Assembly (NCBI RefSeq): GCF_036321535.1
Contig: NC_087436.1
Coordinates: forward strand, 60,824,001-60,888,000
From: Camelus dromedarius
Taxonomy: Eukaryota
DNA: 64,000 nt
Reading direction: 5' to 3'
Shown here: one piece after another, positions 16,195-24,539 of the stretch
Layout: each line of letters starts with the position of its first letter
Numbering within the stretch: position 1 is the first letter of the stretch
The notes under the pieces: model-generated
Seen by the model: the letters and a program-made list of their open reading frames with translations, nothing else
Told to the model about the DNA's origin: nothing
Database searches by the model: none
Made by a program: the position numbers and the translations under genes

Positions 16195-17204
16195 TAACTC
16201 AACTGAAAAATGGGCAAATGACCTGAATAGACATTTCTCCAAACAAAATGTACAAATGGCCAACAGGTAACATTAAAAGGGTGCTCAACATTACTAATCA
16301 TCAGGAAAATGCAAATCAAAACCAAAATGAGATACCACCTCACACCTGTCCAAATGGATATCATCAAAAAGACAAGAGATAATTGAGGGTTGGCAAAGGT
16401 GTAAAGAAAAGGGACTGTTGGTGGGAATGTAAATTGGTGCAGCCATTGGAAAACAGTATGAAGTTTCCTTTAAAAAATTAAAAATAGAACTACCTTATGA
16501 TCCAGCAATCCCACTTCTGGTTGTGTATCCAAAAGAAATAAAATCAATATTCCAAAGATACATTGGCACTCCCATGCTTATTGCAGCATTATTCACAGTA
16601 GCCAAGATATGGGAAAAACCTAAATGTCTGTCAATGTTGATGGATGAGTGGATAAAGAAAATGTGATATGTATAAAGAAGTATATATGTGAATATTATTA
16701 GCTTTAAAAAAGAAGAAAATCCTGCCATTTGCAACATCATAGATCAGCCTGGAGGACATTATGCTAAGTGAAATAAGCCAGACATAGAAAGATAACTAAT
16801 ATATGATCTCACTTATAGATGAAATCTAGAAAAGTCAAACTCATAGGAGTGGAGGGCAGAATGATAGTTGCCAAGTCGTGGGTCAAGGGAGGTCAGGAAA
16901 TGGAGAGATGTTGGTCCAAGGGTACAAACTTTCATTTATAAAATGAATAAGTTCTGGGGGGTTTAACATGCAACATGGTGACTGTAGTTAATAATAATGT
17001 ATTTTACACTTGAACTTTGCTGAAACTAGACCTTAAGTGTTCTCATCACACAAACAAAGGTAAGTATACAAAACAACAGATGTGTTAATTAGCTTGATTT
17101 TGGCAATCATTTCTCAGTGTACACATATATCAAACCATGTTGTATACCTTAAATGTATACAATTTTTATTTGTCAACTACACTTTAATAAAGCTGGGAGA
17201 AAAG
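15540..17204 (+). mobile_element. 5'-truncated L1 (ORF2 C-terminal part plus 3' UTR), multiple stops
   Basis: ORF 15436-15753 translates to [45 protein letters not shown], canonical L1 ORF2p; ends aataaagctgggagaaaag. Confidence 0.95.
16150..16192. repeat. (CA)n microsatellite within L1
   Basis: Direct reading. Confidence 0.95.
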
Positions 17205-17908
17205 AAACAAAGAAAATGACAAACGTAACACATGATTGCATGCTCAATGCAGAGAACTTCAGACAAACACAATGGAAGAAAAACAATAAACTACCTACTA
17301 AAAAAAATTCAGAGATAATCACCCCTTCTTTTGGTGTATGACTGTACCTTTAAGAGATATTCTTATTATATGTGCCTAAGTATTGCTTGAAAATCATTCT
17401 TACTTGCTTCCAGATTACTGCTTATATTCCTGTTGAATTCAAAACTTACTGTTATTTAACTATACAGTGATGACAGATAACTAAATCCTGGGCAAGTCAT
17501 AATCAATAGAGAATGCCAACACTGTATATAGTGCGTTAAAATAGCCTAGAGATAATCATGACATTATTAATGATGTTATTGTCAAATACAGTGGCATTGA
17601 ATTGAAACATAAACAGGATTCAGACTCAAACAAGATATCCCAAAGAACTGAGCTGCTTTGAATTCTGCTCACTTGGGCTTTTAATATGCTAAGATGAATT
17701 AGACAAGTTTCTACATCTATACTCCCATAGCCGATAATTCCTTACTCTCTCACACTACTCCTCACCAGCTGCTTATAATTCCCATGAATAATTCTAATCT
17801 TAAAAGGATTTATTTTCTTTCATCTACCTAAAACACTGTATGTTGTTGATAAAAAGTACTGTAATGTAAAAGCTGAAGTATGTCTAAGAAATCATCTAAA
17901 TTAATTTC

Positions 17909-17948
17909 CTGTTTCATAAGCTGGGGGTCTTTTTGCAGTTAAATTAAC
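17909..17948 (-). CDS. Candidate exon 3 of the CpG-island gene, VNLTAKRPPAYET(G); donor reads GA, and read-through gives GN-stop at 17904-17902
   Basis: Strong acceptor ctttgtcaccttctccag|G; phase 0 matches exon 2; acag|gaaatt is one base from acag|gtaatt. Confidence 0.4.
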
Positions 17949-18254
17949 CTGGAGAAGGTGACAAAGATTTTATTTCATCGTGTTTAACTTGAGAATACTG
18001 AGGGTAGAGGCGCACCCCATGTCATGTGTGTATGAGACAGGGTGTCCCTCCACCCCCAGGCCCGGATGGAGATGAAGTGCAGCCTTATCATGTGTCTATG
18101 AGAATGGGTGCCCATCCAGACACAGGCTTGGGGTTGGAGGCCAAGTGCCCCCATACCATGTGTCTATTAAAGGGGCGCACATCCATATACAGGCCTGGGT
18201 ATGGATGTGTACCCGTATTGTAGGTTTCTTTTATGGGTGCACCTAAACACACAG

Positions 18255-18257
<3 letters not shown>

Positions 18258-18293
<36 letters not shown>

Positions 18294-18570
18294 ATATAAC
18301 ATGTATGTTATATAATATGTATGTGTGTGTATATATACATATAATATGTATATTATATATCTGTATATCCATACACATGTCAGTGTATGGATATATATCT
18401 ATTATATATAATGTATACATGTCTGTGTATTATGTAAATATATAATGTAAATATATAATATATGTGTGTATGCACACATGTATTATAACATATATACATG
18501 TATAAAATATAATGCATGCATATATTATATATTATATATACATATATAATATGATATATCTACATATAAA
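18258..18570. repeat. (TG)n followed by a long degenerate (TA)/(TATG) microsatellite
   Basis: Direct reading. Confidence 0.95.
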
Positions 18571-18651
18571 ACAGGTAGATTATAGACATGTACATAGAAC
18601 TCCAGACCTGTCAAACTTAGACTTCAGCTCATATTGGGGACCAATCATCTT

Positions 18652-18814
18652 TTTTGTTTGTTTGTTTCAGTATAGATAGAGTTATTTAGAGATCCATCAA
18701 GAGGCAAAAGAAAGGCCACGAGGTGTGGGGTTGTGTGCTCAGAGTAGAGTAAAAGTAGGTACACACTTCATAGATAGAATGTGGGCCATCTCTGAAGGGG
18801 GGCGGGTGGCAGCC
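18652..18814 (-). mobile_element. A-tailed retrocopy of the LTR R region (copy E), nested in the ERV
   Basis: Reverse complement matches about 28981-29134; tail aaacaaacaaacaaaaaa; TSD accaatcatctt 18640-18651 / acaaaccatctt 18815-18826 (10/12). Confidence 0.8.
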
Positions 18815-21357
18815 ACAAACCATCTTAAAGGATAAATTTCTCACCCAATCTGCCCCCAGTAGTAGATAAAAACTCCAAAAGGCAATCCAGGAACCCAGAG
18901 TAACTTGATAAATGTGAACCATTGCTGCCACAGGTTTTTTTTTTAAATTGCGATCAGGTACAAGAGGCCAAGGCTCAGGAGAAGGAAAGAAGGAAAGAGG
19001 CCAGGCCTGCCCAAGTGATTATAGCCCTTCAAGGGCAGCCACAACCCCTAAATCCTCGGCCCCCAGCAGCCTGAGACAAGCCTGATGAAAAATACAACAT
19101 CTGCCGCTGACCTGGTCAATGGGCCAAGAAATGTCCCCATAAGGACAAATGTTCAAGATCTGCCTGTTTTTGGTGTAAAAAGCAAGGTCATTGGGTAGCC
19201 CTCTGTCCCTCGAGCCAAATGGCCTGTGGGGGATAAGTGGCCTGCGACCTGCAAATGGTTGTCTGAGACTGAAGAAACCCCCTCCAGTCAGCCCCAGCAC
19301 AAGAGATCTTCATCACTGGGCTGGAGCCATGGATGCAAATGGATGTGGCAGGTAGGACAATCACATTTTTTTGGATACCGGGACCACCGACTCTGTCCCA
19401 CCTTCCTTCTCTGGACCCTTCTCCTCTAGATTCTATACCATCATGGGAGTCACAGGTCAGCCGGCCTTAAGATTCTTTACTCATCCCCTTTGTTGTTTAT
19501 GGGATGAACGCTCATTCGCACATTCTTTCTTATGCTTGCCAGAATGCCCTAGCCCCCATTAAGGCCAAGATCTTCTTTACAAGTTGGGAACCCGAGTTAT
19601 CCTGGGAGAAAATCCCCAAACTTCCACCTTTTTACAACTCTTACTGCTCTCTGGGGAAGGAGAAAGACCTCCGGACCCAGAGGCCTGGGAGAATAAAATT
19701 AATCCTGTTGTCTTGGATCAAGATATCCCAGGGCGAGCAAAGACGGCTGCTCCGGATGTCATCTCCCTCAAAGATCCTACCTGGTTCCCTAATCGAAAAC
19801 AATATATGACTTACTTACCTCTCCCTTACTCGAAAACAGGCCATCCAACATGGAATCCAAACTCTTAACTCTTGGCCGAGCAGGGGTATCTAGTTTCCAA
19901 GTCCAAGGCCAAAATGGACAAACAAGAGGTAACTTACCTAGGAGTTGTTCTGACTCCTGGAAACCACAGCATTTCCCCTGAATGAATTGAGGGAATCTTA
20001 CAACTCCCTAATCCCACTACTAGAAAACAGCTCAAGGCATTTCTCGGACTAACAGTTTACCATAGGCTCTGGTCTCTAGTTATGAGTCTAGAGCCCAACT
20101 TCTATATGACAACTTAAAGGGTAAGGATGACTCAGTACCTCTCCAGTGGCATCCTTCCCAACAGGAAGCAGTGGAAGAACGAAAAAATCTCCTAGTAAGA
20201 TCCCTGGCCTCGGGGCTTCCAGATCCCACAAGGCCCTTCCAGTTCTATGTTCATGAGAGAGGAGGAATAGCGTTGGGGGTCCTCACCCAATGGCTGGGTC
20301 CTACCCATCAGCCTACGGGATACCTCTCCAAGTGGCTAGACCCCACTGCTTGAGGCTGGCCTTCCTGCCTAAGAGTGTTAGGAGCCCTCTCCACTCTCCT
20401 GGAGGAAGCTTTTAAGCTAACTCTGGGGGCCCCTATACAAGCATATGCTAACCATCAAGTTTCTGACCTTTTAAAAGGCAGGAGACATTTCTGGCTCTCA
20501 GATGCTTGGCTTCTTAAATATCAGGCATTATTACTGGAAAACCCAGACGTCACTGTCTTTTTTTGTGGGACACTCAATCATGCTACACTATTACCATCAC
20601 CTGACAAGTCTCTTCCCTTTCACGTATGTCATGAGACCCTATCCATTTCTCTAGGAGCTAGAACAGGTCTCAGCGACCAACCCCTGGAAAACCCTGGTGA
20701 GATCTGGTTCACCAATGGGAGCCATATATTCTTGTGAACCTCTTAGCAATCTGCGACTGCTTTCCAAGCAACACTCCAGTGAGACTCTTCCATCGCCCTA
20801 GGAGACTATGGATCCCTGTTAGATAAATCCCTTTCTTAAATGTCTCCTGGTTCAAATCGTTTCTCTTTTAGGGCCCCCAGCAAACTGTTTTAATACTAAT
20901 TTAAAATGTCTCTGACATTAGGGTCCTGCTTTTTACTCCTCCTTTAGTTCACTGGACTAACACTGCAACATCTGCTTTCTAAAACCTAAACCAACAGAAA
21001 GCACAGAAATCAATGGTTTATAAGAAGAACCTTGTTTGCCCCTTTCGTCCTTTGGCTAGGATTAGCTCTATATATTTGAACTCTATCTTTTCATCCTTCT
21101 TATGAAAAGTGTTTCTTCTCCTCTAGAGATAAACTTCAAATGATGATATAACAAGGTAATCAACAAATCAGCCAAGACCACTTATATACAAGCCCCTCAG
21201 TGAACACCAACCCTTTGCCCACATCCTGACCAAGGACAGTCAGCTAGTCTGGTACCCCAACGAGCTCCATCACTGCCCCAGATCAGTAGGAAGTAGCTAG
21301 AGTGGTCCTCGCTCTCTACATCCCCAAGATTCGGGGCCCTATGACTAGAGGGGGGAA

Positions 21358-21477
21358 TGTAGGTAGTTTAGCTAGGAATCAGCACTGGGCAGGGGAAGAG
21401 GAAACTGAAAGGAACAACCCAGAACATAAGGAACCAGGGCTCTCAATCAACCAGAGCACAGAGAATCTGAGCTGTCA

Positions 21478-21512
<35 letters not shown>

Positions 21513-21826
21513 GCAAGGACTGGGGATGGAGTCGCACCCCGTGTCATGTCTCTGCGAGATGGGGTGCCCCTCCACCCCCAGAGCCTAAATCCATCTTCTT
21601 TTTTCCTGTCATTCTCTACAAATTTATTACTCTTTATTAAAGATGCTAGTAGCCAGAGTTCTAAGCCACCCCTTTGATTTACCCAACTCTGAATGCTCTC
21701 ATATATATGCACCAAGCACTTGTTAACAAACAGGTGTTGTTTTTCTCTTGTTAATTTGTTATTTGTTATTTGGGTCCTGGCTGAGAACTCAGTAGGATAG
21801 AGGAAAGATTTTTTTCCTCCCCTACA
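21358..21826 (+). mobile_element. 3' LTR of the ERV, with an internal (ATCA)n tract
   Basis: TG...CA termini (tgtagg...cctaca) directly after the PPT. Confidence 0.9.
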
Positions 21827-22066
21827 CTAGCTTGGTGATTTTGATGATGCATTATAAGTTGAATGGTAACACAGAGAAAATGTATTTGTGTTTACTTTGG
21901 AGGAAGAAAACAGAATGGGAAGGCCTCCTGGAAAAGATCTATACTGAATTGAATACTCAAAGTTACCTAACCCAGTGAAATCAAATCCCTATAGGTAAAA
22001 TAATATCTATCTGTCTATCGTACAAGGTCATTGTGAGAATTGAGAGACTGAATATAAAGTGGACAG

Positions 22067-22580
22067 TGCCAGATCAGATATTAAAACAGAACTCTGACCC
22101 ACAACCTGTAGTAACCCACCCAGAAAACCAACTCATTGTTTAGAATGACCAACCCGGGAAGCCAGCCTGCTATAAGTCAGACTTGGCAGAAGTCAGATGA
22201 CTATCTCAAGTGAAGTCCTGGAATCCACATAGTAACCTCCGTAACAATCAGCCCAAAATGGCCAGGACTTGATTAATAAGTGATAACTTCCCTAAATTTT
22301 GACCCTGCCTCCAACTTCCAACCAATCAGAGAAAACCAGATATGCACTCCTAACCAATCACATAGTGCCTGCATCTAGTTAAACAACCTACAGCTTCCCC
22401 ATGCCAACAGCCTCAGTCAGGGCACACCTGAAGTCTTCCCTTCTTCCCATTATAAAGCTTTCCCACTCATGTGCCTTTGAATCTCAGCCAAAATGCAGGT
22501 GGCCTGGCTGACTCACTTGTTCCATCTAGCTCTAACTAGCTTTTGCTTGTTCTCATTTGGTTGGTCTTCTTTACTTCCAC
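22067..22580 (+). mobile_element. Older ERV1-type solo LTR (MER34/MER39-like)
   Basis: Paired aaccaatca CCAAT boxes, tataaa, ends cttccaca. Confidence 0.65.
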
Positions 22581-22885
22581 AGAAATAATTTGACAATATA
22601 TATAAAATGTCTAGTACAAAGTGTAATTTTTAGGCCTAGGACTTTCTGAATCATTAAAGGAAATATTGAAGGAAACAAAGCCCTTAGGCCTTCAAGGCCT
22701 GACCTACTTTCAACCAAATTTACATTGTGATCTATATATCAAAAGGCCTGCCTGCAAATCTGGTTGCTAAAGAAGCACTCAGTAGTTTCAAAAGCAGCAG
22801 GTCAGACCTGAAAACCAGCATCCCAACCAAACTGTCATGGGCTTCACTGTATTAGCTGAGACAAAACAAGTGGTTTCCTACTTAC

Positions 22886-22929
22886 TGTTCTGTATTCTGA
22901 AGGTTCGCCAAAATGAGCATTCAGAGAGG
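22886..22929 (-). CDS. Candidate exon 2 (44 nt, phase 1 to 0), (A)SLNAHFGEPSEYRT
   Basis: Consensus acceptor tatttccttcttgcag| and donor aca|gtaagt; in frame with exon 1; non-repeat sequence. Confidence 0.55.
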
Positions 22930-23224
22930 CTGCAAGAAGGAAATAGTTTAAAGGATGTGATTAAGGTCAATTCTTGTTCATAAGGGATTTTTAAAATCTG
23001 GTTGGTGATTTATACAGGCCACATCTTCTCCCTTTCCCTCAGATGCCAAGCTTTTGAAGAACCCTTAAAAAGGGTATTCAGTTGTGTTCTGGTACCTATC
23101 CTAGCAGGCATACAGAAAACATTTGGTACTGGTTCCATGACTGACCACCCTAACAGGGTTACTTGGGGAAAGACTTTACAGCTGTGGAACAAAAGTCAGA
23201 GAAGTAACTCTTAACAATTCATGA

Positions 23225-23412
23225 GCCACCTCTCTCTTGCTTCCTCCTTTTAGGAGACCGCCCACACTCTGTCTATGGAGTGTGTACCTACTGTTACTTT
23301 AACCTGAGCACCCAACCCCCACACCTCGTGGCCTTTCTCTTGCCTTTTGAAACACCCTACACTCTATGCAATATGTATCTCTCTAAATAAATCTGTCTTT
23401 ACTCAAAAAAAC
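23225..23412 (+). mobile_element. A-tailed retrocopy of the LTR R region (copy B)
   Basis: Starts gccacctctc, ends aataaatctgtctttactc+A-run; degenerate TSD aacaattcatga 23213-23224 / aaaatttcacga 23413-23424 (9/12). Confidence 0.75.
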
Positions 23413-23637
23413 AAAATTTCACGATATTCTTTCCCTCTGCAGCTCAGGGTGATAAACGCAAAACTTAACATTAGGTGTTACCATTTTAACTCTATTTTAA
23501 AAGGCCGTCAAGTCTGGCTAGACTAAATCCCCTTTCTTATAAGCCCCAGACTGCACTTGGCAGTCACAGTTCCTGATTCCTTTAAATCTCCTACAGAGGT
23601 TTTGTAGGGCCCCTTGGTACATAAAAACCCAGCTCCT

Positions 23638-23804
23638 TGGGGAAGGGTATAGCTGAGTGGTAGAGTGTGTGCTTAGCATGCACAAGGTCCTGGGTTCAAT
23701 CCCCAGTACCTCCATTTAAATAAATAAATGAATGAATTAACGAATGAATGAATGAATAAATAAACCTAATCCCCTCCCCTTCCAAAAAAAAAAAAAAACT
23801 AAAA
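23638..23804 (+). mobile_element. vic-1-like camelid tRNA-derived SINE
   Basis: ggggaagggtatagctgagtggtagag...gggttcaatccccagtacctcc (A and B boxes), AT-rich tail, TSD ataaaaaccca(g/a)ctcct 23621-23637 / 23805-23821. Confidence 0.9.
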
Positions 23805-23929
23805 ATAAAAACCCAACTCCTGATTTTGGGCTCCAGAAAATCCACTTTAAGAGAGAAGGAGTAGCAAGCAAGGTGTCACTAAGAAGATGCTGGGAAGAAC
23901 TAAAGAGGGCTGCTGGCTCCACAAAGCCA

Positions 23930-24420
23930 TCCCTGCGCACTCTCAACTTCACGTCCCTTGAGGACCACAGGGCCGGCCCGGAACCGCCAATAACGGGTGC
24001 GGCCGAGGGACGCCAATGCCCGGATCCAGGGAGGGGCAGCTGCGCCAAGAACCCCTTTTGGTTACTCCTTGGCCGGTCCTAGGGCAACCAGCCAAATGGT
24101 GAGCATTACCTGCCGAGTCCCACCAGACCAGAAGCACCAGGACCAAAGGCAGTGCCGCGAGCCCCGTTCTCCCTCCGCGGATGGCCATCCGTCACTGAGT
24201 ACTTCGGCGCCCGCGCGACATGAAGGGCGCCCGCGGTTCGGACACGCAAAGGGTGGGGTGAGGGAAGGGCGGTAAGAGGAGGGAGGATGAGGGGAGGGGG
24301 GTGAGCCAGGCAGGTAGGAGGAGGGGGAGGGGCGGAATGGATGAGGGAGCGGGGCGGCAGAGGGAGGAAGGTAGAGGAGGGGTGGTTGCTAGCCCCCAGC
24401 TCCTCGCCCCGTGGAGGATG
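23930..24420 (-). promoter_or_regulatory. CpG island / probable promoter with GC boxes
   Basis: Only CpG-dense tract in the window; GGGGCGG at 24329-24335 and 24351-24357; G-rich run 24251-24385. Confidence 0.8.
24110..24188 (-). CDS. Candidate coding exon 1: signal-peptide-like MAIRGGRTGLAALPLVLVLLVWWDSA with a phase-1 donor
   Basis: ATG at 24188 with +4 G; basic n-region, hydrophobic h-region, small-residue c-region; donor cag|gtaatg; lies in the CpG island. Confidence 0.6.
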
Positions 24421-24539
24421 GGAGTAAGCGATTATGGGGACCATCTCTCCCTGCAGCGAACAAGAGCCTTGTAAGAGCCCTGGATGGCTCTGTCAGTCAA
24501 CCTCAGTTTCTGAGCTTCTGCTGCATCCCAGGAACTGTT

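Follow-up and report, generated by a model that had tools for sequence, protein, structure and literature searches.

A SPINK2 duplicate split by a 23-Mb inversion in the dromedary genome

A 64,000-nucleotide stretch of the Camelus dromedarius genome (hereafter the window) carries a CpG island and two minus-strand exons that, judged from sequence, represent the front half of another copy of SPINK2. That a SPINK2 duplicate has been split here is, as a structure, almost certain, and we consider it quite probable that this structure and the absence of any protein function hold together, the duplicate being truncated and unprocessed; most likely it is a pseudogene that is possibly still transcribed. 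The initial annotation had joined the two exons to a third and proposed a secreted micro-protein of 56 residues unmatched to any known protein. That lack of a match was not borne out, since exons 1 and 2 duplicate those of SPINK2. The micro-protein claim itself matters little once explained as half of a duplicated gene; the locus documents cleanly, and at base resolution, how a duplication was followed by an inversion of 23 Mb.

SPINK2 is described as an inhibitor with one Kazal domain that belongs to spermatocytes, spermatids and blood stem cells, and SPINK/Kazal-type inhibitors are defined by a Kazal domain whose six cysteines form three disulfides (PMC13639018).

Exons 1 and 2 and the severed 3' half

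The gene model proposed in the initial annotation is accurate as far as its signals are concerned. All four splice sites are canonical GT or AG, the intron phases are 1 and then 0, and the joined frame gives the same 56 residues. Exon 1 (24188-24110, minus strand, 79 nt) is followed by GT, exon 2 (22929-22886, minus strand, 44 nt) is flanked by AG and GT, and the proposed exon 3 acceptor at 17948 is preceded by a pyrimidine tract and AG. The AATAAA at 17814-17809 lies 86 nt past the stop codon at 17903-17901, close to the 90 nt first estimated. An ATG, an open frame, canonical splice sites and a hydrophobic signal, as looked for in a micro-protein, are thus all present in the sequence; the secretion signal was judged by hydropathy and homology, and its hydrophobic core is retained (peak 3.0). 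The CpG island is likewise real, with 24001-24500 (GC 0.65, CpG o/e 0.60) being the sole 500-nt bin in the window with GC above 0.5 and CpG o/e above 0.55.

Searched against its own genome, the exon 1 region has one further match (C1:84158452-84158705, 86%), and the exon 2 region matches the same two places. Exon 1 (24110-24188, the coding part, specifying the signal peptide) differs from C1:84158565-84158643 by 10 substitutions in 79 nt without an indel, and exon 2 (22886-22929, specifying the signal cleavage region and a short N-terminal extension) differs from C1:84159484-84159527 by 6 substitutions in 44 nt. Over the two exons together, the intact SPINK2 copy, which lies 23 Mb away, has the same base at 107 of 123 positions and the same residue at 33 of 41, and exon 2 can be aligned with 24 mammalian SPINK2 proteins. 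The identity of the intact copy is clear: past its exon 2, a very strong acceptor opens a Kazal exon in phase 0. This exon matches Pfam Kazal_1, has human SPINK2 (2jxd, E 1e-19) as its best PDB match and found Kazal family members in all 81 of its protein database matches, most of them named SPINK2. The four joined exons of this locus, compared by eye, equal the Camelus dromedarius SPINK2 sequence (P0082).

The exons of the window are therefore not an isolated resemblance: both are homologous to their SPINK2 counterparts, their lengths (79 and 44 nt) and phases are kept, no indels occur and the flanks are homologous as well. The signal-peptide exon ending in phase 1 and the second exon, as initially annotated, are both real by this homology, and they exceed chance by far because they were inherited from SPINK2. 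The island (23860-24350, minus strand, GC 0.637) is an eroding copy of the SPINK2 promoter island, with 31 CpG and an o/e of 0.63 against 48 CpG and 0.84 in the intact copy; it has lost about a third of its CpG and kept about two thirds.

The window copy shares with SPINK2 (camelid XP_031319211.1 and XP_006198216; human structure 2jxd) the promoter island, a 79-nt exon 1 ending in phase 1, a 44-nt exon 2 ending in phase 0 and the signal peptide. Unlike SPINK2, it has no Kazal domain: there is no cysteine among the 56 residues, and the exon 3 that would encode its reactive-site loop is 23 Mb away and broken. Lacking both cysteines and a reactive loop, the window copy cannot inhibit proteases. 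Neither the exon 1 nor the exon 2 frame matched a Pfam family, Kazal matching exon 3 of the intact copy only. A protein search with the 40-residue frame from exon 1 returned 0 of 83 candidates at 71-2000 aa and none at 22-70 aa, a null that weighs little because camelid SPINK2 (P0001), in the same database, was missed despite sharing most of exon 1. Against the PDB, the exon 2 frame found just one irrelevant repeat protein, and the exon 1 pattern had no matches in metagenome contigs, where host DNA had been sought as an outgroup.

The intact Kazal exon has exactly one other close copy in its own genome, at C1:84040893, carrying two stops, a frameshifting 2-nt deletion and a lost donor, with an exon 4 remnant at C1:84048898. 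In the window, the 5' remnant of SPINK2 intron 2 (21582-22885, minus strand) is 87% identical to C1:84159180-84160789, and the last match is 21638-21582 to C1:84162200-84162257. In the coordinates of the intact copy, the window can be followed as far as 84162257, and the far piece takes up the match at 84162267. By this alignment, the window piece and the piece at C1:84.04-84.05 Mb are two halves of one gene. A longer gene running beyond the window was also considered and rejected, as no homology to SPINK2 exon 3 or 4 was found in the 60 kb downstream of the window copy.

Homology extends well beyond the gene. On the exon 1 side, collinear blocks with 76-92% identity run through the window and onwards, matching C1 from 84160789 back to 84051285; the part within the window (24351-64000, minus strand) corresponds, at 79-87%, to C1:84157338 down to 84111637. 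These collinear flanks (79-88%) span more than 100 kb, and outside the window the block runs through REST, NOA1 and POLR2B. The far piece terminates in DNA from 84192828-84194508. From these two ends (84051285 and 84192828-84194508), the duplicated unit measures about 143 kb and was originally tandem. The aligned blocks establish, at the level of sequence, a tandem duplication of the 5' part of POLR2B, NOA1, REST and SPINK2, the first step in the history of the locus. SPINK2 positions 17 and 36 are derived in three of three camelid orthologues and the derived residues are absent from the copy; the duplication is therefore older than the camel-alpaca split.

In a second step, an inversion of about 23.2 Mb cut the second SPINK2 copy in intron 2, leaving the promoter and exons 1-2 at C1:60.85 Mb and the Kazal exon and exon 4 at C1:84.04-84.05 Mb, where the severed Kazal exon decayed. 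The copy has features of an unprocessed pseudogene, with introns and flanks duplicated along with the exons, and its disabling lesions are the split in intron 2 and, in the Kazal exon, the stops, frameshift and lost donor. Exons 1-2 themselves carry neither a stop nor a frameshift.

The proposed third exon and selection on the retained half

The initial annotation had included 17809-17948 (minus strand; a cryptic acceptor, 15 codons, a stop and the AATAAA) as the terminal exon. We found no support for its belonging to the gene. It is single-copy DNA past the inversion breakpoint, with one match only in its own genome and none in the SPINK2 locus, and it begins about 50 nt beyond the insert at the junction. 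On this placement it is desert DNA set beside exon 2 by the inversion, not SPINK2-derived.

In its favour, the acceptor is good, the codons include an N-glycosylation sequon, and a poly(A) signal is present. In a home-made weight matrix, the acceptor at 17948 scored 7.2, compared with 7.8 and 9.0 for upstream sites at 21384 and 19650, and 11.0 and 10.7 for downstream sites at 17192 and 16701. A transcript leaving exon 2 would thus meet two stronger acceptors (21384 and 19650) and two AATAAA motifs (21638 and 21628) before it reached the proposed exon 3; the motifs sit in the SPINK2 intron 2 remnant and could end a transcript earlier. Acceptors scoring as well as 17948 numbered 310 in 539 kb of single-strand flanking DNA; 35 of them had an AATAAA within 150 nt of a phase-0 stop, and 15 had at least 15 codons as well as the AATAAA, giving 0.14-0.32 per 5 kb across the two counts. 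At this frequency, one such site within 5 kb is unremarkable, and exon 3 is not shown to exceed chance.

We also considered, and rejected, exon 3 as a leftover of another gene. The roughly 300 kb surrounding the two junctions hold 126 candidate exons flanked by splice sites; a Pfam scan of 57 of them gave no match; one candidate exon near the junctions, searched in the ESM Atlas, gave no match. The nearest genes found around the junctions are 180-330 kb away.

A young chimeric gene is the best-surviving alternative, though we judge it unlikely. It would have formed once, following the inversion, a new terminal exon was recruited by the promoter and signal exons of SPINK2. Its product, a glycosylated peptide some 30 residues long, would be secreted and have its own function, perhaps in sperm. 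The frame, the ATG and the three inherited splice sites are intact despite 11-13% divergence, the hydrophobic core persists, and the copy has kept ancestral residues at positions 17, 31 and 36. A stop codon in the last exon lets an mRNA avoid nonsense-mediated decay, and the predicted message, having its stop there, would escape. Exons 1-2 show no stop or indel and intact splice sites, whereas the severed Kazal exon has four lesions. Against this reading, exon-3-like sites are common and competing sites come earlier, and the ATG, three splice sites and exon 1-2 frame stayed intact under simulated neutral evolution with a frequency of 0.22-0.30 (8 settings).

Substitutions in the retained exons also argue against a chimeric gene. 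The exons diverge from the intact copy by 12.7% and 13.6%, compared with 10.5-12% for nearby introns. Polarised with 24 SPINK2 proteins, drawn from 85 by length, start Met and a recognisable exon 2 end, the copy is derived at residues 3, 8, 14, 18 and 32 (six base changes) and the intact gene at 17, 31 and 36, where the copy is ancestral. Replacement changes on the branch of the copy number 6, at the neutral expectation of 5.0-5.9 per branch, although few sites are involved. At position 8, where most mammalian annotations place the start, Met occurs in 23 of 24 outgroups and three of three camelid orthologues, and Thr in the copy. This conserved start Met has a strong context (A at -3); its loss leaves the copy with an upstream ATG that has C at -3. 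In favour of selection, the pairwise dN/dS-type ratio over 41 codons, 0.42, is below 1, but it depends on 7 synonymous changes and includes the branch of the constrained copy. Counts this small may be compatible with weak selection on exons 1-2. Selection on the copy was not detectable, and a functional 56-residue product, as first proposed, is unsupported.

Were the chimeric gene true, one inversion would have made a new camelid gene in a single step, with the promoter and secretion signal coming from SPINK2, a de novo exon coming from the desert between GPRIN3 and synuclein, and a cysteine-free secreted glycopeptide as the product. Through the same event, camelids would have come to carry two intact genes for the REST repressor, and a foreign promoter island would have been put in the former 3' flank of the synuclein gene.

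Under the preferred reading of a truncated duplicate, the promoter island may have stayed active in cells that express SPINK2, and splicing of exon 1 to exon 2 may persist. A putative transcript would end at the intronic poly(A) signals or use cryptic acceptors, 17948 among several, and any peptide would consist of the SPINK2 signal peptide, an N-terminal extension of about 13 residues and an unselected tail from unrelated DNA. By word content, part of 22800-24400 was present in 17 of 24 rows from public sequencing runs; the share of words was 0.04 in two recorded-RNA runs and 0.04-0.20 in nine rows guessed to be RNA, values from which we draw no conclusion on expression. The window region and the intact copy have 1 of 1571 31-mers in common.

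More improbable still is a transcribed relic whose RNA matters, for example because it modulates SPINK2 or because transcription extends through the desert in the direction of the synuclein gene. The island does persist, and it faces a gene of the synuclein family that lies about 0.33 Mb off and is encoded on the other strand. Against such a role, island and exons are conserved no better than introns, and an Rfam search of 144 kb gave 8 tRNA-like matches, which we read as SINEs, and nothing else.

Gene order and the inversion junctions

The order of genes along C1, determined largely by family searches, accords with the split seen in SPINK2. At the left end lie a synuclein gene at 60.50 Mb (+), the window, REST, NOA1, POLR2B and an IGFBP domain at 61.05 Mb (-). 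In the middle are albumin family genes at 70.88 Mb (-) and 71.98-72.08 Mb (+) and DMP1 at 82.69 Mb (+). The right end holds a GRIN_C gene at 83.85 Mb (-), the broken Kazal exon, REST, SPINK2 (+) and, at 84.27 Mb (+), a HOPX-like gene. From family, position and the human gene order, we take the family hits to be SNCA, IGFBP7, GC, ALB and GPRIN3. The synuclein and GRIN_C genes sit where they had been predicted beforehand from the human gene order.

The human GPRIN3 and SNCA genes are neighbours, flanking a single intergenic space (PMC9309432). Here the GPRIN3-family and synuclein genes are 23 Mb apart, each adjoining one junction. Sequence and gene order together show that the segment C1:60.84-84.03 Mb (about 23.2 Mb) is inverted, with breaks in intron 2 of the SPINK2 copy and in the GPRIN3-SNCA desert. 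The ancestral joins of the flanks were read from gene order rather than from an outgroup alignment.

A broken, composite, retroelement-derived insert occupies the junction in the window (17998-21581) and is related to the insert at the other junction. The matching parts are 1.4 kb (20137-21578 to C1:84031419-84032851, 87%) and 0.8 kb (18009-18801 to C1:84036191-84036995, 74%), with palindromic units of about 60 nt at the ends. A weak RT_RNaseH_2 match at 20066-20350 (+) had an E of 6e-4, under the curated cut-off, in one of four frames tested, and inspection by eye recognised no target-site duplications at either junction. Because the two inserts are related, we infer that two copies of one retroelement-derived insert, lying in opposite orientation, recombined and so produced the inversion, which would be its simplest cause. 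The divergence of the inserts is about that of the duplicated blocks (11-13%), so the inversion probably came soon after the duplication.

An assembly error, with the second SPINK2 copy contiguous in the animal, is highly implausible: both junctions lie in repeats and the analysis rests on one assembly, but the junctions are reciprocal to within 10 bp, and the inserts, at 74-87%, are too different for a typical misjoin. Even if the halves were joined, the copy would still be a pseudogene, its Kazal exon being broken.

Neighbouring gene copies and related cases

In mammals, REST is known as a dosage-sensitive gene, present in single copy, whose product represses neuronal genes. In the dromedary assembly it is intact in both places, at C1:84.087-84.100 Mb (-) and 60.900-60.909 Mb (+), each copy having three open coding exons, canonical splice sites and a promoter island. 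Pfam zf-C2H2_REST was found in both copies, and the ESM Atlas match was 0.99. Between the copies, exon 2 is 97% identical with a dN/dS of 0.11, the last exon is 92% identical with a dN/dS of 0.39, and the zinc fingers are identical. From these comparisons, both copies are intact and under purifying selection. Their survival is part of what gives the locus most specialist value: if both are expressed, camelids would offer a natural experiment on how REST dosage acts or how two REST copies divide their tasks.

The other genes of the block have evidently undergone complementary loss, with one copy each of NOA1, POLR2B and SPINK2 disabled. On the side where SPINK2 is intact, NOA1 exon 1 is interrupted by 8 gaps, of which 7 have lengths not divisible by three, and POLR2B is cut short where the duplication ends. 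In the window-side copy, exon 1 of NOA1, the one NOA1 exon compared, keeps an open frame of 383 codons, and the POLR2B exons continue.

In the titles and abstract openings searched, we found no mention of a camel SPINK2 duplication, SPINK2 paralogues, the inversion or a camelid REST duplication. A second camelid REST may already be listed in supplementary gene-family tables or genome annotations.

Partial duplicates at breakpoints are a known kind, and human SRGAP2C and CHRFAM7A are partial gene duplicates at rearrangement breakpoints. Like them, the SPINK2 copy is a 5' fragment with its promoter, derived from a segmental duplication, with an end supplied by flanking DNA. The SRGAP2C and CHRFAM7A fragments keep a folded domain able to act on the parent, whereas the SPINK2 copy does not; with just the signal peptide and some 13 further residues retained, we see no way for it to act as a dominant negative.

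Protein database matches include more than one SPINK2-like protein in sheep, muntjacs and Bos mutus, and these protein listings suggest that SPINK2 duplicates exist elsewhere in artiodactyls too. The sheep, muntjac and Bos mutus entries retain the Kazal domain, in contrast to the split camel copy.

Two REST copies

Judging from sequence, the REST pair is probably the most interesting feature of the region. The window-side copy lies on the plus strand (G000:C1:60899600-60909081; stretches L045-L046 of the locus) and the copy beside intact SPINK2 on the minus strand (G000:C1:84087304-84100539; stretches L037-L039). Both genes are intact, each with three open coding exons, canonical splice sites and a promoter island. 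The zinc fingers are identical between the copies, and exon 2 gives a dN/dS of 0.11 between them.

NOA1 (C1:84063002-84064081 and 60933376-60934596) and POLR2B (C1:84051285-84062700 and 60934500-60968000) are also paired. In one of the two NOA1 copies exon 1 carries a frameshift, and the edge of the duplication truncates one copy of POLR2B; on the window side both genes are apparently intact, as far as checked. This damage is complementary loss after duplication.

Inversion and junctions

The inversion spans ~23.2 Mb, with ends at C1:60.84 Mb and 84.03 Mb, and sets the GPRIN3-like gene (GRIN_C) apart from a synuclein gene, one break falling inside the desert between them. The corresponding human desert contains a Parkinson risk variant, according to PMC9309432. 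Elsewhere, a stop-free, intronless synuclein-family match (G000:C11:41213269-41213574; profile positions 1-103) looks like a retrocopy.

Repeated palindromic units of ~60 nt, adjoining (TA)n/(CA)n tracts, border both junction inserts (window 17998-18240 and 21519-21581; 1342-1486 and 6786-6995 of L032, the stretch at the other junction).

SPINK2 introns and products

Intron 1 of duplicate SPINK2 carries two insertions, an LTR-like piece (window 23214-23418) and a tRNA-derived SINE (23636-23805, with an Rfam tRNA match at 23643-23714), both missing from the intact copy. In the intact copy it is intron 2 that gained an element, an L1-like insertion at C1:84160794-84162200. Past the exon-2 donor, the frame continues for 13 codons of intron 2 (22847-22885, minus strand) to a stop that precedes an AATAAA pair (21638, 21628). 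On this reading of the sequence, skipping the donor would give a product ending in intron 2, equally as possible as the spliced one. Among database relatives, the fur-seal protein P0044 fuses SPINK2 to a homeodomain gene, probably by annotation read-through between neighbouring genes.
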